A DNA stretch of 64,000 nucleotides from an uncultured Candidatus Peribacteria bacterium (GTDB taxonomy: Bacteria; Patescibacteriota; Gracilibacteria; Peribacterales; Peribacteraceae): assembly GCA_964632395.1 (NCBI GenBank), contig CAZWES010000001.1, forward strand, positions 25,287 to 89,286, read 5' to 3'. The position numbers and the translations under genes are program-made. Shown piece by piece: positions 34,310-52,376 of this stretch. The notes beneath the pieces are model-generated. The model was not told the DNA's origin. It worked only from the letters and a program-made list of their open reading frames with translations, and ran no database searches. Numbering within the stretch: the first letter of the stretch is position 1; every line of letters starts with the position of its first letter.

Positions 34310-36493
34310 TTATTTACTATCCAATTCCTCCTCCGAAGGATGTTTCGCATCTGGATCATCAGATTTTTCATCATCCGGAGGCGCTTCGAAGAGGCCATCG
34401 GTTTGGGGTTCTTGTTTTGGTTTTGTGGGTTTGTCTTTGGCGCTGGACGGGGTTGTGGTTGCCGATTCCTCCGGCGGAGACGCCCTCCCCTCTGCTTTTG
34501 GTTCTACGTCGCTCTGTTCAGTTGGTGTTGTGTCGGATAGGTCGGGCGTCTCTACGCCGTCGGGCGTATCAACGGCATCCGAAATTGCCTCTTCTCGCTT
34601 CTCGGCTTCACGCTTTGCCAATTCCTCTGGGTTCGTTGTAATAATTTCATGCTCCTTTGGCGAGGCGACGATTTGGATTGCGACGTGTTTGCGGCCGGCG
34701 AAGAATACTCCTTGTCCGACTGATGCATTCAGAAGCAGATACCTCTCACCTTCTGTCAGATTAAATGCCTTCTGCAACGAGTCGACTGCGGAGGGGGCCT
34801 GCTTCAGCAAAATCTGCATCGCGGCATTGGTCACAATTGGTTTTCCAAATGGCGAGCGCATGAAGTCCTCCACGTCCTGCGTGATTGTTGTGATTCCAAG
34901 GTAATACTTTCTTGCACGCTTGATTAGGCCGTAGAGGAATCTTGCGGAATCTTCATATTGCATGATGTTCCATGCCTCATCAATTACAACCAGCCTCTTT
35001 TTGAGCGAGCTACGGACTTCATTCCAAAGGAAATTAAGGACGATATAAATCGCCATCGGGCGAAGTGATTCCTCAAGGTCACGAGTCTGGAAAACCATTA
35101 GCTGGCTACCCACATCAACATTTGTTTGCTGGTTAAAGAGGCCGGCAAAGCTTCCTTCGGTGTACTTTTTAAGAATCTTTGCCATCTCCTCTCCGCCTTC
35201 AGTCGTCATCAAAACATCAACAAGATCATGTAGGGTCGGAGGTTCCATTTTCCCCGGGTCAGGGGTTTCCATAGTGATTCCCTTTAGCGCATATGTATCC
35301 AGAATTGCTTTATCCAAAGTTGCTTCCCTTTCCGAGCCAACATCCCCGATCATTAGCTTAAATAAGCCATGGAGGTTGATTACGGCACTCCTCAAAAGCT
35401 GCCCGGGCTTCGAGTCTTCATCATCACCACTTGAGGAAATTGCCTTGGGGAGATCGAATGGATTGATTCTTGCATTTCCCTGAACAGAAAGCGGAACAAC
35501 CGCACCGCCCATCACATTTGCAAGTTCGGTGTATTCGTTTTCCGGATCAATTATGTAAACGTCCGTATCCATCATCAAATATCTGATGACTTCGAGTTTT
35601 ACTGCATAAGATTTACCGGCGCCGGATGTTGCAAACACAGTTTCGTTCGCGTTCGGAAGTTTGAACCTGTCAAAAATTACGAGGGACTCGTTGTGGCGGT
35701 TTATGCCGTAAAGCACTCCTTGGTCGCTCGTAAGATCCGAACTTGAGAACGGAAAAGCAGTCGAGAGTGGGGCGGTATTCATATTCCGATTGATTTCCAG
35801 TTCATCAAGGCAAAAAGGAAGAGTGGAATTCCACGCATGCTCCATCTGGAAATCTGCAGGCTTCATCAACACAAGCTTTCCTCCAAGAATGGATTCAATG
35901 TCTGCCTGAATCTTCTTAAGTTTCTCATCACTCTCCGCATAAATTGTGATGTAGAAGCCAAGTTGGAAGAGTTTCTCGAATCCGCGTGCGAGCATATCCC
36001 TGAGTTGTTCCGCATCTTCCAGTGCAGCTTCAAGTTGCGGGTCACGGGAGAGGCCCTTCTCACGTCTCAAGTTTATGGACGAACGCATCTCCGTAACTTT
36101 GCGTTTTAACATCTTCATCACCGCAGCACTTGAGCTTGGATAAATGAACTGGGAGATATCCATTGCAGCTTCGTAGTTCACAATTTGTGCCATCCAGTTT
36201 GGATGGATCTGGCTTGGCCAGTTAAATGCAAAGAAAGTGCGTGCAATAGTTCCATCCCCAATCGTGATGGATTTAACTCCAACATCGAGCGCGGAAGGCG
36301 AAACAACATCCAGAACTTTCTGCAGACCCTCCTCGTAAAGTTGCTCTGCCGTCCTCTCTTCCTCCTGGCTTATGCCGTCATCTCCCTCGGCTTTTTTGGG
36401 TTCCTTCTCTTTTTTTGGCGCGGGAGCACCAAGCAGCAGATCGAGCAGAGAGCCTCCACTCTTTTTTGCCGTTGTTTGTTTATTTTCTGCCAT
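34310..36493 (-). CDS. virB4: VirB4/TraC-like type IV secretion ATPase
   Basis: VFATSGAGKSYAV is Walker A and RLVVIDEAWNIM is the Walker B DEAW motif. ARKYYLGITTITQDVEDF is also present. Acidic low-complexity C-terminus. Confidence 0.8.
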   Translation of the reverse strand: MAENKQTTAKKSGGSLLDLLLGAPAPKKEKEPKKAEGDDGISQEEERTAEQLYEEGLQKVLDVVSPSALDVGVKSITIGDGTIARTFFAFNWPSQIHPNWMAQIVNYEAAMDISQFIYPSSSAAVMKMLKRKVTEMRSSINLRREKGLSRDPQLEAALEDAEQLRDMLARGFEKLFQLGFYITIYAESDEKLKKIQADIESILGGKLVLMKPADFQMEHAWNSTLPFCLDELEINRNMNTAPLSTAFPFSSSDLTSDQGVLYGINRHNESLVIFDRFKLPNANETVFATSGAGKSYAVKLEVIRYLMMDTDVYIIDPENEYTELANVMGGAVVPLSVQGNARINPFDLPKAISSSGDDEDSKPGQLLRSAVINLHGLFKLMIGDVGSEREATLDKAILDTYALKGITMETPDPGKMEPPTLHDLVDVLMTTEGGEEMAKILKKYTEGSFAGLFNQQTNVDVGSQLMVFQTRDLEESLRPMAIYIVLNFLWNEVRSSLKKRLVVIDEAWNIMQYEDSARFLYGLIKRARKYYLGITTITQDVEDFMRSPFGKPIVTNAAMQILLKQAPSAVDSLQKAFNLTEGERYLLLNASVGQGVFFAGRKHVAIQIVASPKEHEIITTNPEELAKREAEKREEAISDAVDTPDGVETPDLSDTTPTEQSDVEPKAEGRASPPEESATTTPSSAKDKPTKPKQEPQTDGLFEAPPDDEKSDDPDAKHPSEEELDSK

Positions 36494-36715: not shown

Positions 36716-37366
36716 CTATGGAAACAAAAACCGTTCCTCTGCTATCCGCGTTTTGATAATGTCAGCATAAAAAGGATCGTTGTGTTCATGCTTACGGAAT
36801 AGAGACCACGAAATGCAGTCTGCAACCTGCAGACATTTTTCTTCAGATGTCGTTTTGATGCTGACATCCAGAGAAACCAGATGGTTGCCCTTTGCCTGCC
36901 TTTGAAGGTACTGCTGGAAGTTGAGATTTAAGAATACGTTAGTTTCACGTTTGGAAGCAACAAGTTTAATTAGTCTATCCAGTGGAATTAGCCTTCGCGT
37001 GAAAATACGATCGAGGAGAATGTTCGTCACGTAATTGTATAGCACCTGTTTCTCATTCTGCATATTTGTGTACACCTTCTTTTTGTTCAGGATGATCGAG
37101 AGAATGGAAACATCGTGCTTTTTGAGTTCTTCTAATAGCCGTTTTCTCGTTACGGGTTTTTCCTTGAATGCGTGCAACACTCCGGGGTGATGCTTTAGTT
37201 CATGCTTAGTAAATCCACGGAATATCTTTTTCACAATTTTTCTGATTGCACGCATCGTTCGTTCATCTGGAACAAATAGGAACGTCACTACAAAGTGTTT
37301 TGAGGTTTTCTGTTTTGTGAAATCAAATCCCAAGTCGCCACTTTCGTCCATGAAGATATAGGCCAT
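36716..37366 (-). CDS. DUF3800-family protein
   Basis: The N-terminal MAYIFMDESGDLGFDF is the hallmark DESG motif. Confidence 0.7.
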   Translation of the reverse strand: MAYIFMDESGDLGFDFTKQKTSKHFVVTFLFVPDERTMRAIRKIVKKIFRGFTKHELKHHPGVLHAFKEKPVTRKRLLEELKKHDVSILSIILNKKKVYTNMQNEKQVLYNYVTNILLDRIFTRRLIPLDRLIKLVASKRETNVFLNLNFQQYLQRQAKGNHLVSLDVSIKTTSEEKCLQVADCISWSLFRKHEHNDPFYADIIKTRIAEERFLFP

Positions 37367-37408: not shown

Positions 37409-39973
37409 TCAAACTGGTGCCCCCCCAATCGGAGGCATTCCTGCAGCCCCTCCCGGTGGCGTTGATGGAATGTACGCACCGATCCTCCTTTCAATCTCAC
37501 GACTCACAAACGCCTTATCTCGTCCGTACGTCAAACGGCTTAATTGTTTGAAGGCCTCGGCTGCCTGGTCATCGCCTTTGATTGCGTATGGGTTTTCCGG
37601 GATGATTGAGAAAGGAGCAGAGGGTTGCGTATCCACGCTCAACTTCATCACCGCTTTGTATTTATCCAGATTGATCAGGTCACTTTCAGAAAAGGCAGGT
37701 GCCATTTCTTTTGCGCAGTACTCGGCATCCTGTGCACCGATTTTGTAGAACATCATTGTTCCGATGTTTCCAAAGACTGCGCCCTTCAAATTCACGTTCG
37801 CGGAAAGTTTGCTCTCCTTCTCCAGCTGATCGAGATACTGGTGTGCCATGCAGAGGCCGAGCTTGTATTTCCTGGCTTCAGAAAGTATCGACTCAATTGA
37901 TTCTGTTACATAGTTCTGGAACTCATCAATATAGAGGAAAAACGGCACGCGCTCCTCATCACTTTGCTTTTGGCGACGCATGGCGGCGACCTGAACCTTG
38001 TTCACGATTATCATTCCCATGAGCTGCGAGTTGATGTCACCTACAAGTCCTTTACTCAGATTCATGATCAGAAGCTTCTTCTGGCTCATCACATCATGAA
38101 AGTCGAATGCGCTCTTTACTTGTCCGACTATGTTTCTTATCAGTGTGTTTGTTGTGAATTGCCCGAATTTGGCTGCAAAGTAGGGGATCATTTCCTGCTT
38201 TTCGCGCTGCCCGGTTTGTGCCATCTGTTTCTCCCAGAAAGAACGCACGATGGGATTTGCGACTTTTGTAACTTTGTACTTCTGCCATTCATCATCAGTG
38301 AAAAGTCTGACAAGATCCGTGATGGCGCCACCTTCATCCTCATCCGCCATCAGCGTCAAACAACCGTTCCTGAAGTAATCCTGAATCCTCGGCCCGAAAA
38401 TCTCTTCACCAAACATCTTTACCATCATGTTCATTGCATCAAGAGCGATCAGATCTTTTTCTTCCTCCGATTTTCCTTCCAGCATATTCAGGCCGATCGG
38501 ACGCTCGGTATCTGCCGGGTTAAAGTAGATGACATCATTCGCCCTCTCGCGCGGGATGCGCGGAAGAAGCGCTTCCGCAAGCGATCCGTGCGGGTCCACA
38601 ACGCAGCATCCATTTCCATTGAGGAAGTCCTGCACCGCAAGATTAATCATCATTGTGGATTTTCCTGTTCCCGTTTGCCCGACGATGTAAAAATGACGGA
38701 AGCGGTCATTAAATTTCATGTAAACATCCTTCTTTGCTCCGCGATAAACATTTGTCCCAAGCTTCACAGAATTTTCTCCTGCCTCCTCAGAATCTGATGG
38801 AACATTCTTTGGTGAGGGGACTATCTTGTAGTTCTGCCACTTAATGGTCGTCACCTTGTTATAAACGATGCTTGGAAAGTGGAAAAGCCCGGCAAGTTCA
38901 AGCGAACAAAGCAGTAGTCTTGGATGCCTAATGCGCCTGATGATGGGTATCTTTGGAGCGCGTCTTATAAAATCCGCAACAAGCCGGCGGTGATTGTGAT
39001 AGCGAGTTCTAAAGAGAATATTGCCTGCGATCTCGGAAAACTGGTTGAAACCTCCAATCACATTTTCAAGCTGCTCATCTGATTTCTTCTTTGAACTCGC
39101 AGAGGTCACAATTCTAATTGCAGCATGATATCCCGGTGAGCCTGCTTTCATATCCATTGTTTTACTCAGCTCTTCTGTCATCTGTGAAACCCTTTCACCC
39201 GTTTGGCGCTCCTCTCCACTTTCCAGTTTAAAGAGCGCGGTTCCATACGTCATCGTCGTAAACATTGCAGAGAACCACGTAATCGGGTTCCAGATTACGA
39301 TTCCTTTCTTTTTGGGATTGAGTAACTTCTGTGCTTCCTTTCGTGCTTTTTTGTGCCATCCGGATTTGGCAGGCCTGAGCATTATCTGCACTGCAGCACC
39401 TTCATCTTTTGCGAGCTTGCTGAACGCATTCGTGATTGCATTAAGCGGATCGCTCTTCATAGTCTCGTAAGTCTTAAGCGGCTTGAAGTATCTCTGTGAA
39501 GTAAGCAAATATGTTGAGGATGTGTGTGATTCTTTTGTGAAGATGTTGTAATCCTGAACTTCATCAATCACGGCATCGGGGTAAAAGGATGTTATCTGTT
39601 TTTCAACGAAGGAAACGAGGGATCGCGGAACTACTACGTAGAAAAGAATCTCACCTTCCAGTGCGGCATATTCAACCGAGAAAAATGGCTGTCTCCTAAA
39701 AAACCTGCGGATCTTGTGCGAGTCGTAAATTCCGTAGAGCGACTGGAAAAGGTGGTCCATCACTCCGGTTACCTCCTTAAAGGATTTACCGGTCGAGAAT
39801 TCCTCCGAAACTTTCTCCTTATCCTCTTTGCTTTCCTTTTTGGGCATTAGGATTTGCAGGAAAACAAGGCTGCGCGAGCGCAGGCGGTCGGTGAGGATTC
39901 TTGATGCCCAGACAATTGCTGTGAGGAGGGCAGCGGTGAGTAGGGCGATCAGGATGATCAGGGTTGGGGTCAT
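37409..39973 (-). CDS. virD4: VirD4/TraG/TraD-like type IV coupling protein
   Basis: N-terminal TM helix. HFYIVGQTGTGKSTMMINL is Walker A and FFLYIDEFQNY is Walker B. 854 aa. Confidence 0.75.
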   Translation of the reverse strand: MTPTLIILIALLTAALLTAIVWASRILTDRLRSRSLVFLQILMPKKESKEDKEKVSEEFSTGKSFKEVTGVMDHLFQSLYGIYDSHKIRRFFRRQPFFSVEYAALEGEILFYVVVPRSLVSFVEKQITSFYPDAVIDEVQDYNIFTKESHTSSTYLLTSQRYFKPLKTYETMKSDPLNAITNAFSKLAKDEGAAVQIMLRPAKSGWHKKARKEAQKLLNPKKKGIVIWNPITWFSAMFTTMTYGTALFKLESGEERQTGERVSQMTEELSKTMDMKAGSPGYHAAIRIVTSASSKKKSDEQLENVIGGFNQFSEIAGNILFRTRYHNHRRLVADFIRRAPKIPIIRRIRHPRLLLCSLELAGLFHFPSIVYNKVTTIKWQNYKIVPSPKNVPSDSEEAGENSVKLGTNVYRGAKKDVYMKFNDRFRHFYIVGQTGTGKSTMMINLAVQDFLNGNGCCVVDPHGSLAEALLPRIPRERANDVIYFNPADTERPIGLNMLEGKSEEEKDLIALDAMNMMVKMFGEEIFGPRIQDYFRNGCLTLMADEDEGGAITDLVRLFTDDEWQKYKVTKVANPIVRSFWEKQMAQTGQREKQEMIPYFAAKFGQFTTNTLIRNIVGQVKSAFDFHDVMSQKKLLIMNLSKGLVGDINSQLMGMIIVNKVQVAAMRRQKQSDEERVPFFLYIDEFQNYVTESIESILSEARKYKLGLCMAHQYLDQLEKESKLSANVNLKGAVFGNIGTMMFYKIGAQDAEYCAKEMAPAFSESDLINLDKYKAVMKLSVDTQPSAPFSIIPENPYAIKGDDQAAEAFKQLSRLTYGRDKAFVSREIERRIGAYIPSTPPGGAAGMPPIGGAPV

Positions 39974-40280: not shown

Positions 40281-40661
40281 TCAAGTGAACTGACCTGCAA
40301 TCTCCCCTGTGAAGAATCCGACGATTACGCGGGCAAAGAAAATAACAACCAGACCGATTATTGCGTAGATTATGGTCTTCCTTCCCTTTGTTACGTTTTC
40401 TTCGTTTCCACCTGCCATCATGATGCGGAAACCTCCAACGATCACGAAGATGACTGCGATAAGAGCGAGGAAGCCAAGTACAAAGTTAATAACTTTTACG
40501 ACAGATTCCCGTGTCTGATCCGCACCGCCATCCGGCGTTCCTTCTATTTCCGGCATCTCGCCTCCGAATTCGGCAAGTGCCTGCTTTACTGCAAAGAACT
40601 GAAGGTAAATTGCGGTGATGCCATACGATAGGGCTGTGCTGAGAGATGTAATGTGCTTCAT
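40281..40661 (-). CDS. VirB2/TrbC-like T4SS pilin (tentative)
   Basis: 126 aa with a signal-like N-terminus and two C-terminal hydrophobic helices (VINFVLGFLALIAVIFVIVGGF; IIYAIIGLVVIFFARVIVGFF). This architecture is typical of small T4SS pilins. Confidence 0.55.
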   Translation of the reverse strand: MKHITSLSTALSYGITAIYLQFFAVKQALAEFGGEMPEIEGTPDGGADQTRESVVKVINFVLGFLALIAVIFVIVGGFRIMMAGGNEENVTKGRKTIIYAIIGLVVIFFARVIVGFFTGEIAGQFT

Positions 40662-41312: not shown

Positions 41313-42221
41313 TCACTCGATGCCAAGAACCTCCATCAACTCTTCCATATCAATATCCTCCAGCGCTGCCTGCATATCCGGATCATTCAGCATTTCCTTA
41401 GTTTTTGGATGATTCATAATTCCGATGATGTTTCCCTCAGTTGCCATTGCTTTTATTTCCTCGTCTTCCATAAGCCCTTGGGTTATCTGACCGCGCAGCA
41501 CCTCCGCGACCGGTTCATATTCCACAAGCTTCTGCATCTTTTCCGGATCTTTAAGAATTTCTCCTGCAACATCCAATCCCTTATCCACCGATTCCGGCAC
41601 GGGACTTGTTTCCTCTGCAACCTCTCCAAGTGTGGATTCCTCAAGTCCTTTCCTGTGTGCATCCACCATTCTTGCAGGCAGCGTGATCAAACTTTCTTCC
41701 TGAACTTGTTCCACTCCTTCCTGAGCCGGCGGGTTAAATGCAGGTATCTGCGCTGTGAGTTTGCCCATCAAAAGAACGAACCAACTCACAATCATCACGA
41801 TGAGCAGCCCGAACGCCCCGCCGAGAATTGCGCCGCCGAATCTGATCAGACCTTTTTTCCATCCGGTTTGTTTCTTTTTCAATTTGAAAAGGATGCTGAT
41901 CAGGAAGAACTCAAAACGCGCAGTCACATATGCAAGAACTCCTCCGCATGCCATCGCAATTGGTTCGATAACCATTTCCGGTAAGCCATAGGTTGGGATG
42001 AATGGTGCAAGAAAAAATCCGAAGGGCTTGGCAAGCAGATACGCAGCCGCAAGGCTCAAAATCCCAAAGAGTTCTTTAAAGAAACCGCGGAACATTCCAC
42101 GTAATGCAAAGAGGGCGACTATGCTGGCTCCTATCAGCGTGTAGGCGTAGGGGGGGAGGGGGGTGGTGAGGATGGAGAGCATGATTTTCTGCGTGTGGAT
42201 GGTGGGTTGTCGTGCAAACAC
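41313..42221 (-). CDS. cvpA: CvpA-family membrane protein with C-terminal soluble extension
   Basis: Four N-terminal TM helices with the spacing seen in colicin V production (CvpA) proteins. Confidence 0.5.
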   Translation of the reverse strand: MFARQPTIHTQKIMLSILTTPLPPYAYTLIGASIVALFALRGMFRGFFKELFGILSLAAAYLLAKPFGFFLAPFIPTYGLPEMVIEPIAMACGGVLAYVTARFEFFLISILFKLKKKQTGWKKGLIRFGGAILGGAFGLLIVMIVSWFVLLMGKLTAQIPAFNPPAQEGVEQVQEESLITLPARMVDAHRKGLEESTLGEVAEETSPVPESVDKGLDVAGEILKDPEKMQKLVEYEPVAEVLRGQITQGLMEDEEIKAMATEGNIIGIMNHPKTKEMLNDPDMQAALEDIDMEELMEVLGIE

Positions 42222-42229
42222 TAAAAAGC

Positions 42230-42886
42230 TTACTCCTTCAAAAGTACTTCTAAATATTTCTCAAAACAATGTGACAGTGGCTCCTGAAATTCAGGAAAGG
42301 TATCCAGAATAGGTATGATGTCGGACTCAGTGTGATAAGGGAAAATGCCCATAATTTTTTCATTTTTGTTAGAAACAACAACTATCGAAGCTATACCCTG
42401 CTTGACAAGGTCATGATCTAATCCAACCTCATAAGATCCTTCATGCTGATCGCTCCCGGCCAGCCATCCATTCATACATTTAACGACCTTTCCTTCCAAA
42501 GGAGCACAGCTCTCATTGTTACACATCCCAAACCCCATTCTATGATAATAGACGTAAAACTGAACATCGCTCGGTATTTTGTTGGGATGTAAAACTATGC
42601 CAATGGGGGCTTTACCACCAATGCGTAGCGGACCAAAGTTATCTACGGATTTTAGGAATTCATTTTCAGGGTATTTTTTTAGCGCTCTTAATAATTCTTC
42701 GTGGATTTTCTCACCTGCCCAAAAAACTTCCTTTTCTCCTGTTCTAGGATTTACTTCAATGGTTTTACTGTATACCCAGTTCATGTCTATTTCCCAGAGT
42801 AATTCATATGTGGCCATTACAAATAACCAAAAGCAGATTGTTCCGATAAAGATAGTTCCCAAAATAATATTTCTTTTTATTCTCAT
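42230..42886 (-). CDS. Membrane-anchored extracytoplasmic protein, candidate immunity partner (copy 1)
   Basis: N-terminal TM helix NIILGTIFIGTICFWLFVMA. The domain has FGPLRIGGK...FYVYYHRMGFGMCNNESC...IVVVSNKNEKIMGIFP. Its ATG is 4 nt after the stop of the upstream gene. Paralogous to 51465-52376. Confidence 0.6.
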   Translation of the reverse strand: MRIKRNIILGTIFIGTICFWLFVMATYELLWEIDMNWVYSKTIEVNPRTGEKEVFWAGEKIHEELLRALKKYPENEFLKSVDNFGPLRIGGKAPIGIVLHPNKIPSDVQFYVYYHRMGFGMCNNESCAPLEGKVVKCMNGWLAGSDQHEGSYEVGLDHDLVKQGIASIVVVSNKNEKIMGIFPYHTESDIIPILDTFPEFQEPLSHCFEKYLEVLLKE

Positions 42887-42890
42887 ATAG

Positions 42891-43868
42891 TTAGTCGGTA
42901 ATTTCTAAAATGCCAATGCTCTTGGAGTCACCCAGCCTGGCTCTAATGAAAACTTTATAAACTTCATTCCACCTTTTCAGCTCCGTAAGGGTGATGCAAC
43001 CTAAAGTAGCCTGACCGGTGTGAATGTACTTTTCTTTATCTTTACCCGGTCGGTGCTCATGCCCGATATGAAACCAGACCTTCGCCTTGGGAGCCTTTTT
43101 GGCATGAGGAATGCCGCCTTCATGCGGATGATCTGCTATTTCAATGTCATAAAAGCCTTTTTTCCATCTTTCTCCCTGATATTCAATAACCTTGTAGGAT
43201 TTCCTTTTGATTTTGAGTCGTTTTGCTGATCTAGAGTAAGTTACTTTTACTGGGCCTGTGTAAGGATTTCCCGATATTAAATAGGATTTTCCATTCTTTT
43301 TGGTCTTAACAGAACCTGTTTCACCCTGCCTCCATCCCTCCATAATCGTAAAGTAATCTCTCCTGCCTTCGCGTTTATCGAGTCTAACCCTCAAAAAAGC
43401 GGGTATTGCCTGAACTTTTTTGTATCCATCTATTTTTACCCATAAAAAGCCATCCTTCTGCTCCTCAATGTAGTGCATTACCTCCATTACCTGGATATCA
43501 AAGTCAACTTTAAATTCAGCTTCTGGCCTGACAAATGGCCACCTTATTTCTTTTACTTTAACCAAAACTGACTTCTTTTGAATACGCGATTCATTGAGAT
43601 TCACTTTAAACTTTATCTCTGAAACCCCAACGTCATTTAATACCTTATCTCTCTCAATTATTCTGGTTAAAATTGGCAGGCTGAAAGAGCTTTGATCTAT
43701 TTTGAAAACCCCAATCTCCTCTCCAATTTTTCTAGTGGATCCACAACGTAATTTCAAATTTTTCTGAAAGCTTTCTCCAATTGCTTCAATCTCAATTCGG
43801 ATGTCATCCCCTATGGATTTCCCTGAGTATTTTATGCTTGATAGTGTCAGAAAGATATTCTTTATCAT
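42891..43868 (-). CDS. Candidate cell-wall-targeting effector with YkuD/Tlde1-like His...Gly-Cys motif (copy 1)
   Basis: 325 aa with no signal peptide. The C-terminus has GFYDIEIADHPH...KVWFHIGHEH...KYIHTGQATLGCITLTELKRW. The N-terminal two thirds are unrecognised. Paralog at 50410-51459. Confidence 0.55.
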   Translation of the reverse strand: MIKNIFLTLSSIKYSGKSIGDDIRIEIEAIGESFQKNLKLRCGSTRKIGEEIGVFKIDQSSFSLPILTRIIERDKVLNDVGVSEIKFKVNLNESRIQKKSVLVKVKEIRWPFVRPEAEFKVDFDIQVMEVMHYIEEQKDGFLWVKIDGYKKVQAIPAFLRVRLDKREGRRDYFTIMEGWRQGETGSVKTKKNGKSYLISGNPYTGPVKVTYSRSAKRLKIKRKSYKVIEYQGERWKKGFYDIEIADHPHEGGIPHAKKAPKAKVWFHIGHEHRPGKDKEKYIHTGQATLGCITLTELKRWNEVYKVFIRARLGDSKSIGILEITD

Positions 43869-43913
43869 GAGTAAACGGGGTTATGATTAACTGTGATCAT
43901 AGCAGATTGTGAT

Positions 43914-43990
43914 TGGTGGAGCTGGAGGGATTCGAACCCTCGACCTTCTGATTGCGAACCAGACGCTCTGACCGACTGAGCTACAGCCCC
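43914..43990 (-). tRNA. tRNA-Ala (anticodon CGC)
   Basis: Reverse complement: GGGGCTGTAGCTCAGTCGGTCAGAGCGTCTGGTTCGCAATCAGAAGGTCGAGGGTTCGAATCCCTCCAGCTCCACCA. It folds as a cloverleaf with a G3:U70 pair, the T-loop GGTTCGAATCC and an encoded CCA. Confidence 0.9.
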
Positions 43991-44115
43991 ACGAAGTTGA
44001 AGTCTACTCATAAAGAGATATGTAGCAAATGACATGATCTGAATAAATTTTGTATTCACCATTTCACCCCACCCCATCTCGCCGGTATACTCTCCGCGTA
44101 CCATCCATTTTTGTT

Positions 44116-45261
44116 ATGCATAGAATTCTTGTAGGACTCTCGGTTTTTCTTGTGCCACTCATCTTGTTTGCGTGCGTACAGCTAGGTCAGGAAACTGAGG
44201 AAACTCCCGCAGTCATCGAGGAGCAACAGGAAGAAGCGGTTGAGCCGCCTCCACCTCCGCTTGAGGAGGAAGACCTCGTCACGCGCAACGTAACTTACAC
44301 TGGGATTTTGGAGGAGGGTGGCGTGACGATTTATCAGGAGGGCAGCCACAGGCTGATGCTTTCGGATGGGAAGATGGTTCTGCTTGAGCCTGCGGAGGGC
44401 GAAGTAATACCACTCAGTTTATATGTCTCCAAGCTTGTCCGTGTGCAGGGCGATGTATCTCCAACCGTGGAGGCGGGCGGAACGATCATGGAGGTTAAAG
44501 AGATTCACTGGATCCGCCGTGAGGTTGATGAGGAAGGTGATGAGGAAGAAGTTCTGCGAGTTTTGTGCGGTGGTGATGAGGGTGCTGTGTGTCCGGAGGG
44601 GTTTGTTTGTGAGCTTGGTGAGGAGGAAGGGGTGTGTGTACGTAGCGCGGACGCTTCGACAGGCTCAGCAGAGTCCGTATCCGATTTTGAAGATGAAGTA
44701 ACCGATGAGTCTGAGGAAGAAGAGGTTGTAGAGGACGAAGGATCGTCCGCGGAAGAGGAAGAACAAACATCCGAAGCATCAAGTGAAACAGATGAAGCCG
44801 CGGATGGTACTGATCAGGAGTCTGAAGATGAAGAGGAACAAAAGGAAGAACTCGCCCCCACAAACGGCCGCCACGCAAAATCACTCGAACTCATGATGGA
44901 TGAGGACTATGCGGCTGAGCGCTGGACACAGGAATACTGCAGTGAGCATGTTGGCTTTTGTATTCCTGTTCACAAAAACTGGTACTACAAATCTTTTGGT
45001 GCGATGACATCCATCCTCTGGCATGTAGAAATGGGTGCTCAGCCTGTGGAGGTTATGGGCGATGGCCCGCTCCTCGTTGAACTCAAATCCGGCGATCTTG
45101 CGTCAATCGGCGTTACGGATGGAGAAGTAAAAACTGTTGGAAGCAAAGTGATCGGTTATCGTGCGTGGAGCGAGGGCAGGCACTTTGAGGTTACTGCACC
45201 TTCCGGAGTGGAGGAGGCGGTGCGGTTTGTGACTAGTGGGTTGAGGAGTTCGGAGGAATAA
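44116..45261 (+). CDS. Acidic lipoprotein, unknown function
   Basis: MHRILVGLSVFLVPLILFACVQ has a lipobox. Long Glu/Asp-rich linkers are present. Confidence 0.55.
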   Translation: MHRILVGLSVFLVPLILFACVQLGQETEETPAVIEEQQEEAVEPPPPPLEEEDLVTRNVTYTGILEEGGVTIYQEGSHRLMLSDGKMVLLEPAEGEVIPLSLYVSKLVRVQGDVSPTVEAGGTIMEVKEIHWIRREVDEEGDEEEVLRVLCGGDEGAVCPEGFVCELGEEEGVCVRSADASTGSAESVSDFEDEVTDESEEEEVVEDEGSSAEEEEQTSEASSETDEAADGTDQESEDEEEQKEELAPTNGRHAKSLELMMDEDYAAERWTQEYCSEHVGFCIPVHKNWYYKSFGAMTSILWHVEMGAQPVEVMGDGPLLVELKSGDLASIGVTDGEVKTVGSKVIGYRAWSEGRHFEVTAPSGVEEAVRFVTSGLRSSEE

Positions 45262-47176: not shown

Positions 47177-47288
47177 CCATCCTTCGCGCTTGATGGCCTG
47201 CCATCCGTAGCGCAGCGATTTTGTGGAAGAAAAAACTTCCACAACGCTCAAGCGCTACGGACGGCATCCTCCGCTGCGCGAAGGATGG
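47177..47288. repeat. Long imperfect palindrome H6 abutting the 3' end of tRNA-Leu
   Basis: CCATCCTTCGCGC...CCATCCGTAGCGC...GTGGAAG AAAAAA CTTCCAC...GCGCTACGGACGG...GCGCGAAGGATGG. The last 3 nt overlap the tRNA CCA end. Confidence 0.85.
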
Positions 47289-47372
47289 TGCCGAGGGAGG
47301 GAATCGAACCCTCACTCCCTTGCGGGAACACGATTTTGAGTCGTGCGCGTCTGCCAATTCCGCCACCTCGGC
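47286..47372 (-). tRNA. tRNA-Leu (anticodon CAA)
   Basis: Reverse complement: GCCGAGGTGGCGGAATTGGCAGACGCGCACGACTCAAAATCGTGTTCCCGCAAGGGAGTGAGGGTTCGATTCCCTCCCTCGGCACCA. It has a long variable arm and an encoded CCA. Confidence 0.9.
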
Positions 47373-47398: not shown

Positions 47399-47641
47399 CT
47401 ATTGGTGATCACTGATTTTAAACACAGTCAGAACGTCTCCGTTCTTGCGCGCGAATGCCCTGTATTTTTTAGTTATGCGAAATTGCCAAACCTGATCGGA
47501 GTGGGGATTGCGCTTTTTAAGGTCTACACCTCTGTTGTCGCCTTTTTTGAGTTTATGAAGTGCTTTCAGAAAGTGTTTAACAAGCCGATGCCGTTTCAAG
47601 TATGAATCGGCACGGCGAGAGACGAGGATATGTCGTATCAT
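47399..47641 (-). CDS. relE: RelE/ParE-superfamily toxin
   Basis: 80 aa. VWQFRITKKYRAFARKNGDVLTVFKISDH follows the RelE-like W.fR....yRa......l.v..i..H pattern. A 4-nt overlap links it to the upstream antitoxin gene. Confidence 0.7.
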   Translation of the reverse strand: MIRHILVSRRADSYLKRHRLVKHFLKALHKLKKGDNRGVDLKKRNPHSDQVWQFRITKKYRAFARKNGDVLTVFKISDHQ

Positions 47642-47943
47642 TTGTATTCGATGAGTAGGCCCTTTCGTTCATCATCCAGCATTGCGTCATAATCATCACC
47701 CATTTCTTTGGCAAAATTAGAATCTTCTCCCTCTGAAAGAAGGATCTTTTCCAGTTTTTTCCCAGTGAGATTGTCGGGTGTATCTTTGCTGTGATCCAGT
47801 GCAAATTCGATGCGCCCTGTGCGTACGAAATGCATGAGGTATGCTCGCAATATACTACTCAGGGAGAATCCTAGCTGTCGCGCCAGTCTGTCTGCCAGCA
47901 TTTTAAATTTGTCATCCAGTTTAATGTTTACCTGTGTAGTCAT
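47638..47943 (-). CDS. RelB/DinJ-family antitoxin
   Basis: VNIKLDDKFKMLADRLARQLGFSLSSILRAYLMHFVRTGRIEFAL is the ribbon-helix-helix DinJ pattern. Confidence 0.7.
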   Translation of the reverse strand: MTTQVNIKLDDKFKMLADRLARQLGFSLSSILRAYLMHFVRTGRIEFALDHSKDTPDNLTGKKLEKILLSEGEDSNFAKEMGDDYDAMLDDERKGLLIEYK

Positions 47944-50264: not shown

Positions 50265-50355
50265 GTTTTAAAACGTTAAAACAAACACGCCTGCGTACAA
50301 AATGCAAAAAAGCCCCGATTCCGTGGTCTGCTATTCGAGGTGGAAAGCAGAAAAG
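50265..50355. repeat. F-element, left copy (18-nt palindrome plus about 70-nt conserved tail)
   Basis: GTTTTAAAACGTTAAAACAAACACGCCTGCGTACAAAATGCAAAAAAGCCCCGATTCCGTGGTCTGCTATTCGAGGTGGAAAGCAG... A near-identical direct repeat lies at 52429-52517. Confidence 0.85.
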
Positions 50356-50409
50356 CGAGACCAATCATGCCAAATTTGTTCTACTATTGGTTTGTTTCGA
50401 TGTTTTTAC

Positions 50410-51459
50410 ATGGCAGGCTTGCATTGGACAAAGTTGAAATCGTGCATCAAACTATTAGCCGAATTAACCTTAACCAGCTCGAAAGTGCCAAAAGAGATCT
50501 TTCTTAAATTGGGCAGTGTCAAATATTCAGGAAAGTCCATAGGCGATGATATACGGGTTGAAATCGAAACAATGGGAGAACGCGTTGTAGTTGATAAGCA
50601 AATTAAAAGAGGAACGACAAAACGGATTAATAAAGACATTGTAAGATTTACCGTTGATCAAAATTCACTCACTCTGCCAATTACAGTCAGAATAATTGAG
50701 AAAGATATTGTGTTCAATGATGTCGGAGCCAAAAAAGTGAAGATAAAGGTGGATTTGTCGAATCAAGGGTCACAAAAAAGCACTCATCGAGTGGAAGTAT
50801 TTGAAAAACGCTGGAAGTATAAAAAACCAAAAGCTTTGTTTGATGTCACTTTTGAAGTGTTGGCTTCAGATATATTTCGATACATCGAAGAAATGGATGA
50901 AGGATTTTTGTTGGTAAAAAACGAAGCTGATAAGAAGAAGTCTTTGCCAGCGTTTCTTAAAGTCAAATACAATCGACGTGAAAATGAGCGTGAATATTTT
51001 ACCCTTCTCGAAGGGGTTTTGCAGGGGAAGACATTTTCCGTAAAAGCGAAGAGTGGTGGAAGCTCTCGTCTTATTGAGGGAAATCCTTACACCGGGCCGG
51101 TTCATATGACTTATTCAAAGTCTGCAAAGAAATTAACTGTTAAGGGCAGAAAATATAAAATCATTGAGGATCCGGCAAATTCTTGGAGAAAAGGTGTCTA
51201 TGATGTTGAAATCCCTGATCATCCACACATGATGCCAGAGGATTATTTGAACAAATCTTCGAAAGCAAAAGTTTGGTTTCATATAGGTCATGATCATAGG
51301 GATGAAGTGGCGAAGGAGAGGTACTTGCATACTGGTACGATGACTGCAGGATGTATGACGATGATTGAGTTGGAAAAATGGGATGAGATTTATAAAATTC
51401 TTATCAAAGCGCGGAAGGGCGATTCGATGAGTGTTGGTACTGTTGAGATCATAGATTGA
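50410..51459 (+). CDS. Candidate cell-wall-targeting effector with YkuD/Tlde1-like motif (copy 2)
   Basis: ...GVYDVEIPDHPH...KVWFHIGHDH...RYLHTGTMTAGCMTMIELEKW. Collinear with 42891-43868, with roughly half the aligned residues identical by eye. The start is uncertain: ATG at 50410, or GTG at 50484, which would mirror the copy-1 N-terminus. The ORF-track start at 50302 lies inside the F repeat. Confidence 0.55.
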   Translation: MAGLHWTKLKSCIKLLAELTLTSSKVPKEIFLKLGSVKYSGKSIGDDIRVEIETMGERVVVDKQIKRGTTKRINKDIVRFTVDQNSLTLPITVRIIEKDIVFNDVGAKKVKIKVDLSNQGSQKSTHRVEVFEKRWKYKKPKALFDVTFEVLASDIFRYIEEMDEGFLLVKNEADKKKSLPAFLKVKYNRRENEREYFTLLEGVLQGKTFSVKAKSGGSSRLIEGNPYTGPVHMTYSKSAKKLTVKGRKYKIIEDPANSWRKGVYDVEIPDHPHMMPEDYLNKSSKAKVWFHIGHDHRDEVAKERYLHTGTMTAGCMTMIELEKWDEIYKILIKARKGDSMSVGTVEIID

Positions 51460-51464
51460 TAATC

Positions 51465-52376
51465 ATGAAACGTACTTTGTTTGTCATATCCGGCATTATC
51501 CTTATTGGAGTAATGGTTTGTATCGCATTAATCTTTTTTGCCAATGGAGGAACATCAGGAAAAGATGGAAGACTCCGCGCTATAGGCGAGTTTGGCAACC
51601 TCAAAATCGGAGACAAATATTTCTATAAGGCTGGTGGTGATGTTGGTAATGCTTACGAAAAAATTCCTCCATCGAGATTTTATATTTATGTTCTACGGAA
51701 TGACTATAATTATAATGATATCTGTACTTATGAGTCATGTGGAATTATTGGTGGTACGGTCTCTCTTTTAAGGGGGTGGCTAATGGGCTACAAGCTTTCT
51801 CCTTATGAAGAGGAATTTGGTCTTGAATTAAACGACGCCGGAGAATTTCCGACTGGAGAATCGTCTCTGATTGTTGTCGCAGACGGCGATTCTAAAATTA
51901 GAGGAATACATCCAAACGCAAAAATGGATAATTTAATTAACATTTTAAAACTATATCCCGACCTGGTAGATTTTGATCTTCTGAGAGGGATGACGGAATT
52001 TGGACCGCTTGAAGTCGGCGCAGATTTTCCGGCCCATCTTATTCAGGAATTTGACGACCATATTTTTGCAGGGGAACCACAAAAGAAATTCACAGTGTAT
52101 TACATATGGAATAAACCGCGGGGACCCGGATGTAATTACTTTGAGTGCGGGTATCATCTCGATCTCATTTATTCATACGGAGGAGATTATTTAGATATCT
52201 GCCCCGATCGCGATGACGTGCTTCTGGAGCTTGGCATTAGCCCTTCACAGGTATCGCGCGGTGAGGCGACTCTTATGGTGATAACCGATTCCAAAAACAA
52301 AATAACAGGTATTCACCCCAATGTTTTGCTTAGAGATGTGGCTGGGATTTTGTTGCAATACGCTTTGGTGCGGTGA
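51465..52376 (+). CDS. Membrane-anchored protein with two tandem copies of the candidate immunity domain (copy 2)
   Basis: MKRTLFVISGIILIGVMVCIALIFF is a TM helix. Two repeats follow: FGNLKIGDK...CTYESC...LIVVADGDSKIRGIHP and FGPLEVGAD...CNYFEC...LMVITDSKNKITGIHP. The ATG is 5 nt after the upstream stop. Confidence 0.6.
   Translation: MKRTLFVISGIILIGVMVCIALIFFANGGTSGKDGRLRAIGEFGNLKIGDKYFYKAGGDVGNAYEKIPPSRFYIYVLRNDYNYNDICTYESCGIIGGTVSLLRGWLMGYKLSPYEEEFGLELNDAGEFPTGESSLIVVADGDSKIRGIHPNAKMDNLINILKLYPDLVDFDLLRGMTEFGPLEVGADFPAHLIQEFDDHIFAGEPQKKFTVYYIWNKPRGPGCNYFECGYHLDLIYSYGGDYLDICPDRDDVLLELGISPSQVSRGEATLMVITDSKNKITGIHPNVLLRDVAGILLQYALVR

Follow-up and report, generated by a model that had tools for sequence, protein, structure and literature searches.

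A 64,000-nucleotide stretch of contig CAZWES010000001.1 from an uncultured Candidatus Peribacteria bacterium, referred to here at its full length as the window, carries two copies of a two-gene locus, each of which likely represents an antibacterial effector-immunity module. Toxin gene copy 1 (42891..43868, minus strand) has an ATG start and encodes a candidate toxin of 325 residues composed of a C2-like domain, a small beta domain and a Tlde1-like L,D-transpeptidase-fold domain. Partner gene copy 1 (42230..42886, minus strand) follows 4 nt after it and encodes a 218-residue candidate immunity protein with an N-in transmembrane anchor and a type-1 extracytoplasmic domain. The pairing goes beyond chance: of 111 loci elsewhere that could be tested, 110 have the two genes together as a conserved unit. 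Both the chemistry and the logic of such a unit are already known from the Tlde1-type effector-immunity pair; what is new is the three-domain architecture of the toxin and the families to which the partners belong.

Judged by profile comparison and by predicted structure, the C-terminal domain of the toxin (residues 206-325; 42894..43253, minus strand) belongs to the L,D-transpeptidase fold as a distant member of Tlde1 type. The protein ends in GFYDIEIADHPH...KVWFHIGHEH...KYIHTGQATLGCITLTELKRW, and its homology surfaces only via intermediates, profile-profile comparison and structure. A word-indexed search yielded 48 full-length homologs of ~320 residues, none with a Pfam domain, which come mostly from Patescibacteria together with several paralogs in "Deltaproteobacteria bacterium TL4". 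Invariant in their alignment are H249, W265, Y281, H283, G285, G290, C291, W300 and R311, of which H283, G285, G290 and C291 are invariant in both alignments, A1 (full-length) and A2. When the module alignment was compared by hhalign with 16 Tlde1-family sequences including Tlde1a, a template made of real sequences from supplementary Alignment_S1 of PMC9638812, the match extended over 111 columns with 97.4% probability and a P-value, for this single-template comparison, of 1.5e-11; control templates that were reversed or column-shuffled gave at most 0.2%. In the resulting register His283 (codon CAC, 43020..43022, minus strand) corresponds to the His of the Tlde1 "RLHPG" block, Cys291 (codon TGC, 42996..42998, minus strand, in T288-L-G-C291-I-T) to the Cys of "S-x-G-C-I-T", and W265-F266 to the Tlde1 "WF", and His283 and Cys291 are the predicted catalytic residues. 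The Pfam family PF10908 (Tlde1_dom; gathering score 30.1 bits) matches 14 of 27 stand-alone relatives below threshold, at best with E 1.3e-6, and these matches invariably span the His-Cys region.

The structural evidence, all of it from predicted models, points the same way. AlphaFold2 modelled the full-length toxin with a mean predicted local distance difference test score (pLDDT) of 91.7 and the module from residue 130 onward with a pLDDT of 94.1 and a predicted template-modelling score (pTM) of 0.89. The top 31 matches of the module model in a Foldseek search of the PDB are all L,D-transpeptidases (LdtMab2, LdtMt2, LdtMt1, LdtMt3) or DpaA, at E 1e-4 to 1e-3, and some alignments, to LdtMt2, are multi-domain. 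YkuD L,D-transpeptidases (LdtMt2, LdtMab2, Ldt_fm) and the amidase DpaA/LdtF are thus the best structural matches and share the Cys/His active site, and the mycobacterial enzymes, like the window toxin, carry beta-sandwich domains before the catalytic domain. The window toxin differs from the YkuD group, however, in its lack of a PF03734 match, in a His-Cys spacing of 8 instead of HXX14-17-[S/T]HGC, the SHGC motif being absent, in having no export signal or anchor, and in being accessory, multi-copy and island-borne rather than housekeeping.

The N-terminal part of the toxin consists of two further domains. Residues 1-129 (43482..43868, minus strand) are modelled as an eight-stranded beta-sandwich whose top PDB matches in Foldseek are C2 domains (E ~1e-4; template-modelling score normalised to target ~0.5). 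The segment has no Pfam match at E<=10, so that membership in a Pfam C2 family is not indicated. Its conserved residues (G16, S18, G20, D22, G43, E72, D74, D79 and E107) sit, according to the strand map, in the loops after strands 1, 3, 5 and 7, loops that would lie together at one tip of the modelled sandwich like the Ca2+-binding region of C2 domains. Residues 130-205 (43254..43481, minus strand) form a small beta-rich domain that moves with the catalytic domain as one module. An earlier preliminary description of this locus, made from its letters alone, had recognised a YkuD/Tlde1-like domain and a His...[ST]-x-G-C block of the DUF2778/Tlde1 pattern, and both claims are borne out by the hhalign match to real Tlde1 sequences, by the L,D-transpeptidase fold that heads the structural search of the C-terminal domain, by the sub-threshold PF10908 matches of relatives, and by the invariance and register of H283...T288-L-G-C291-I. 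It took the catalytic part to be the last ~90 residues, but the Tlde1-homologous region comprises ~120 residues (206-325) and the transferable module starts near residue 130; and the N-terminal ~230 residues, which it called beta-rich and unlike anything recognisable, include the C2-like sandwich and the small beta domain. Of the two Pfam families that it named for comparison the window protein matches neither: PF10908 is absent from the toxin and from its C-terminal domain even at E<=10, and PF03734 (YkuD) is absent from the toxin and matches 1 of the 27 relatives, at E 0.012.

The module recurs well outside the three-domain proteins. An exhaustive profile search of 1.84 billion representatives gave 782 relatives, in which profile positions ~130-319 behave as an independent module that makes up stand-alone proteins of ~200 residues or the C-terminus of proteins of 412-715 residues. 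In 7 proteins, two of them from Roseivirga and Microcoleus, it lies C-terminal to eCIS_core/DUF4157, the established N-terminal marker of extracellular contractile injection system (eCIS) toxins that bear their toxin domain at the C-terminus (PMC8213781), and it is also found fused to Peptidase_C70 and Amidase_3. One toxin module is thus combined with varied N-terminal trafficking domains; it occurs with eCIS_core, Peptidase_C70, Amidase_3 or the C2-like domain, and also alone. The eCIS_core proteins carry it as C-terminal cargo in Bacteroidota, Cyanobacteria and metagenomes; the window toxins, in contrast, have the C2-like domain where eCIS_core would be, and their surroundings showed no genes for contractile injection. 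Two stand-alone relatives (P0139 and P0161) have N-terminal signal-like hydrophobic extensions, which fit with action outside the cytoplasm. Among individual architectures, one protein of 567 residues (P0162) has the module followed by an Amidase_3 domain, i.e. two wall enzymes in one protein, one of 452 residues (P0129) has Peptidase_C70 followed by the module, and one of 465 residues (P0109), possibly a gene-call fusion, has a HepT-like RNase domain ahead of a full-length C2-plus-Tlde1-like protein. The idea that the N-domain is itself a widely reused trafficking module was rejected, since all of the metagenome genes that are complete (72 of 72) have it together with the Tlde1-like module. 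The sole exception (L071:5001-6608, plus strand) encodes 535 residues, in which the N-domain is joined to an unrelated region (AYQES...VMQVG), a transmembrane segment and weak C-terminal FG-GAP matches; a lytic-transglycosylase reading of its middle region, made by eye, is unsupported by Pfam at E<=10 or by the PDB.

Linkage of the toxin gene to a partner gene is near-obligate. The survey covered 69 loci from genomes and, independently, 80 from metagenomes, and a toxin gene was counted if it was complete and its contig ran on for at least 450 nt downstream. A co-oriented downstream gene for an N-terminally anchored extracytoplasmic protein is present at 51/51 genome loci and 59/60 metagenome loci (110/111), at a distance of between -44 and +24 nt from the toxin gene (medians from -1 to +2 nt). 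These partners are drawn from different families: 69 of the 110 are of type 1, 14 of type 2 (~215 residues), 25 of type 3 (~245 residues) and 2 are other transmembrane-anchored proteins. Type-1 partners contain one to three tandem copies of a ~125-residue domain (FGPL.xG...CxxxxC...GWL.G...KI.GI.P) that all-versus-all BLAST found to be common to genes downstream of toxin homologs and in which three cysteines are near-invariant. The partner of copy 1 has only 7 sequence-detectable homologs; its type-1 domain (approximately residues 78-200; 42287..42655, minus strand) contains the near-invariant FGPL, C122, C127, C137, GWL and KI.GI.P, with C122 and C127 forming the conserved cysteine pair of CNNESC (residues 122-127; 42506..42523, minus strand) that is near-invariant in partners. 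Its transmembrane anchor (residues 7-25; 42812..42868, minus strand) has a hydropathy of 2.41 and is preceded by R2/K4/R5. Remote kinship of the three partner families was considered and rejected (hhalign <4%); they have no Pfam match at E<=1, are absent from Pfam and NCBIfam, and are families other than Tldi1/DUF2195. A thioredoxin/TlpA-like reading of the partner, made by eye, was dropped as lacking support. Patescibacteria have a transmembrane helix as the anchor, and in Deltaproteobacteria TL4, a diderm, the homologous domain comes after a signal of lipoprotein type (FLSIGC and similar). As far as can be judged from sequence, what the partners have in common is an ectodomain tethered on the outer side of the membrane. 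Immunity proteins against toxins that target the wall show this pattern, and the partner is probably the immunity protein of the toxin.

The toxin differs from its partner in topology. Its stop-to-stop segment is 42894-43880, and because an in-frame stop lies 12 nt 5' of the ATG a hidden N-terminal extension is excluded; its maximal 19-residue Kyte-Doolittle hydropathy (KD19) is 0.78, and it is therefore without signal peptide or transmembrane helix. Toxin gene copy 2 (50485..51459, plus strand), found by tblastn, open reading frame (ORF) and hidden Markov model matches, encodes ~324 residues that are 51% identical to copy 1. Its longest ORF (50302-51459) would give 385 residues from ATG 50302 and the Joint Genome Institute (JGI) gene call gives 349; the start was placed at GTG 50485 because homology and the conserved N-terminus of the family (M-x-K-x-I-x-L-K-L) begin there, and the extension upstream of this codon is, on sequence grounds, probably untranslated. 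Partner gene copy 2 (51456..52376, plus strand) overlaps the toxin gene by 4 nt and encodes 306 residues with a transmembrane anchor and two tandem type-1 domains. In total the window has two toxin genes and two partner genes, and no partner stands without a toxin. The layout given in the preliminary description was confirmed throughout, namely a 325-residue toxin ORF with no signal peptide or transmembrane helix, a partner 4 nt downstream with one N-terminal helix and CNNESC, a position directly beside tRNA-Ala in the orientation of CvpA-like and type IV secretion system (T4SS)-like genes, and, as implied by its term "copy 1", a second pair. Its immunity logic finds comparative support in the extracytoplasmic partners coupled to the toxin in 110/111 homolog neighbourhoods and in the swapping of at least three partner families.

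In the mechanism proposed for each locus, the toxin, synthesised in the cytoplasm and lacking a signal peptide, would leave the cell, whereupon its C-terminal domain may attack peptidoglycan stem peptides by means of His283 and Cys291. The chemistry would be that of an L,D-carboxypeptidase and/or of D-amino-acid exchange, both of which have been shown for Tlde1a (PMC9638812), and the C2-like domain may target the toxin or aid its delivery. The partner, predicted to face outward on the peptidoglycan side of the producer's membrane, would bind and block toxin that arrives from sister cells or leaks from the producer, protecting the producer's own wall. The closest known system is Tlde1 itself (Tae5/DUF2778, PF10908; PMC9638812, bioRxiv 10.1101/2020.02.18.954545), with which the window toxin shares remote but significant profile homology over ~110 residues with His and Cys in register, the blocks G-x-Y-x-I, WF, (R/F)-x-H-x-G and S/T-x-G-C-I-T, the absence of a capping insert, a neighbouring gene whose product is extracytoplasmic and the occurrence of several divergent copies per genome. 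In the Tlde1b/c-type sequences of the published alignment, moreover, His and Cys are likewise spaced 8 residues apart and the second His is missing. The window toxin differs in falling under the Pfam cutoff and in having ~205 extra N-terminal residues (the C2-like and small beta domains), and its partner, encoded after the toxin, falls outside DUF2195 and belongs to one of at least three unrelated families. Tlde1 was reported in alpha-, beta- and gamma-proteobacteria, mostly near type VI secretion system (T6SS) genes, whereas the hosts here are Patescibacteria, from which no T6SS is known.

A number of findings weigh against the effector-immunity reading or blunt the homology on which it draws. 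Toxin copy 1 has no match in Pfam or NCBIfam as a full protein or as three sub-fragments (the fragments at E<=10), and phmmer and hmmsearch with the toxin protein and two profiles gave no match among PDB sequences. Ten inspected relatives score 13.6-20.1 bits with PF10908, all under the 30.1-bit cutoff; the template-modelling scores of the module in Foldseek are modest, 0.36-0.40, and Tlde1a is not among its top 50 matches. The second His of canonical SHGC is Leu or Ala in the toxin family, as it is likewise missing from Tlde1b/c-type sequences. Finally, the analysis found for the toxin neither an export signal nor a conserved secretion apparatus that would explain the path of a cytoplasmic protein to the peptidoglycan.

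The neighbourhood of copy 1 offers a candidate for that path. On the same strand and downstream of the pair lie a CvpA-like gene (41313-42221, PF02674) and, 1.6 kb off, genes for a T4SS pilin (40281-40661, PF18895), a VirD4-like protein (37409-39973) and a VirB4/TraG-like protein (34310-36493), all on the minus strand. If the effector-immunity reading is right, the toxin could specifically be a substrate of this adjacent Patescibacteria T4SS-like machine, since T4SS are widespread in Patescibacteria, with substrates unknown (PMC12102498), and bactericidal T4SS effectors exist in Xanthomonas (PMC10933484). The Xanthomonas X-Tfes and their X-Tfi lipoproteins are comparable in being peptidoglycan-targeting effectors without a Sec signal that are matched by extracytoplasmic immunity proteins, but they differ in fold and phylum, and the toxin family has neither a conserved T4SS linkage nor a recognised T4SS recognition domain. 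Within 5 kb of toxin family loci a VirD4-like gene occurs in 3/73, a pilin gene in 1/73 and a CvpA gene in 0/73, and conserved linkage to T4SS or CvpA was rejected on these counts, the association with the T4SS-like cluster being regarded as particular to this genome. Copy 2 and the Deltaproteobacteria TL4 copies are located elsewhere, the module is combined with different trafficking domains in other phyla, and a Pfam search recognised no T4SS targeting domain in the toxin, no explicit test for XVIPCD having been made. Delivery by the neighbouring T4SS, which the preliminary description had itself flagged as speculative, gains no support from these counts and is rather improbable. Nor were T6SS or type VII secretion system (T7SS) genes found in the Pfam-annotated 21 kb around the copy-1 pair, and T6SS families are absent among Pfam-annotated neighbours of the window locus and of two other annotated locus groups.

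The same T4SS-like genes could be taken to suggest that the enzyme edits the producer's own peptidoglycan, by 3-3 cross-linking or by VirB1-like local opening for the T4SS-like apparatus, with the partner as its recruiter or regulator. The L,D-transpeptidase fold is mainly a housekeeping one, the layout of beta domains plus catalytic domain resembles that of LdtMt2, the pilin, VirD4-like and VirB4-like genes are only 1.6 kb from copy 1, and peptidoglycan hydrolases are frequent in T4SS loci (PMC12102498). Against such wall remodelling, the enzyme has no signal peptide or anchor, T4SS genes are within 5 kb in at most 3/73 loci and copy 2 adjoins none, and the family is rare and patchy, with 69 loci among 185,579 species genomes. 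It is present in 2 to at least 6 copies per genome with divergent paralogs, and both window copies lie in low-GC islands, the pairs having a GC content of 0.386 and 0.397 against 0.459 for the window, which places them in the lowest 2-4% of same-size windows. Because the toxin is without an export signal, because the family is patchy, multi-copy and island-borne, and because partner families are swapped and the module is fused in the manner of toxins, as in the eCIS architectures, a housekeeping role is disfavoured, and self-directed remodelling appears improbable.

Several features of the distribution may be recorded here. The tRNA-Ala(CGC) gene (43914..43990, minus strand) lies 45 nt upstream of toxin copy 1 and may be an island boundary without any functional part in the pair. 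At roughly 7 of 36 loci (L034, L037, L038, L048, L060, L066 and the window, 43914-43990) a tRNA gene of one specificity or another is within ~300 nt of the pair, a proximity that, given the small size of the genome, looks above chance and points to islands near tRNA genes. Deltaproteobacteria bacterium TL4 (JBBCAX01; L011, L012, L014, L016, L019 and L043), with a large genome, has at least 6 paralogous toxin-lipoprotein pairs, one of which shares its contig with polyketide synthase and nonribosomal peptide synthetase (PKS/NRPS) genes, while one adjoins PhdYeFM/PIN and a DDE transposase fragment. Sixteen loci from metagenome-assembled genomes titled "uncultured Gammaproteobacteria" (L023, L025, L033, L037, L038, L040, L044, L048, L051, L052, L054, L055, L057, L061, L065 and L066) have a low GC content (0.32-0.48); these labels are judged unreliable and probably wrong because the flanking genes are 75-90% identical to Falkowbacteria/Patescibacteria loci.

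A signal-less wall enzyme next to a small membrane protein also recalls the lysis cassette of a phage or other mobile element, in which the toxin would be an endolysin and the single-helix partner a holin-like or spanin-like releaser. Endolysins without signal peptides adjoin small membrane proteins, and holin T of phage T4 is a protein with one transmembrane domain and a large periplasmic domain; the placing of the pairs in low-GC islands beside tRNA genes would also suit a mobile element. Searches of phage sequence nevertheless gave no support: PHROGs gave no match, tblastn against 50,697 phage genomes gave none, and a BFVD structural search gave no significant match. The 2.9 million contigs of IMG/VR hold a single match, to the module only, beside primase and resolvase genes and without lysis or structural genes, and the annotated neighbourhoods of the family show no phage genes. 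The partners, moreover, come from unrelated families and contain between one and three ectodomains in tandem, and the homologous TL4 partner is a lipoprotein without a transmembrane helix, which therefore cannot form a membrane hole or act as a holin. On the phage searches and this lipoprotein partner the lysis cassette was rejected, and it is very unlikely to be the explanation. The IMG/VR match (L076:8001-8612; IMGVR_UViG_2541047519_000001) is a stand-alone 203-residue module beside DUF927 primase-like, CapR/DUF4379 and resolvase genes, followed by ORFs of 99 and 1164 residues, both without a Pfam match, and the contig looks like an integrative element rather than a phage lysis region.

An addiction or defence module acting on the producer itself is a further reading, by which the enzyme, released or activated under stress or phage attack, would lyse the cell while the partner serves as sensor or brake. 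It could draw on the accessory, island-like distribution and on the company that the family keeps, since neighbours at other loci include a transposase and the classical toxin-antitoxin genes PhdYeFM/PIN and helix-turn-helix (HTH)/SocA_Panacea, and a RelB/ParE-like pair lies between the two window copies. This pair (47399-47943, minus strand), beside tRNA-Leu (47286-47372), consists of two small overlapping ORFs, one RelB/ribbon-helix-helix (RHH) antitoxin-like (101 residues; PF04221, E 0.002) and the other ParE-like (80 residues; PF24732, E 6e-5), both just under the Pfam cutoffs. PADLOC, however, found no match for the module, toxin and partner are predicted in different compartments, an ill fit with direct antitoxin control, and the other architectures of the module are exported toxins; the chance that the pair acts in this way seems very slight.

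In the T4SS-like cluster, a gene for a DUF3800 protein (36716-37366, minus strand; E 8.6e-12) separates the VirD4-like gene from the VirB4/TraG-like one. Divergent from the tRNA-Ala/toxin locus, 44050-45261 (plus strand) encodes a 403-residue protein that starts with a hydrophobic segment at its N-terminus and has a long low-complexity stretch of extreme acidity (E/D-rich); a Pfam search gave no significant match for it. A scan for promoters and terminators gave counts equal to the shuffled expectation.

A bolder form of the effector-immunity reading, which is speculative and on present evidence unlikely, would make the C2-like-plus-Tlde1-like proteins a Patescibacteria-specific weapon or a tool for opening the host wall, independent of the known toxin-injection machines. 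The C2-like domain would use its conserved acidic tip to attach to the target envelope by way of Ca2+ or lipid and would deliver an L,D-peptidase to host or rival peptidoglycan at the epibiont contact site, while the swappable anchored partners would shield the producer's wall. Should this hold, the epibiotic lifestyle would have its first defined effector-immunity system, and a new trafficking domain would come with it.

Tlde1-type toxins have been described as cargo of proteobacterial T6SS, and the superfamily now reaches the Patescibacteria, ultra-small and host-dependent bacteria whose molecular tools for interaction with hosts or rivals are largely unknown. The components that are new comprise the three-domain layout of the toxin and no fewer than three immunity-type families, all of them uncharacterised. 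The pairs are concrete candidates for how Patescibacteria may attack or remodel the walls of their neighbours.

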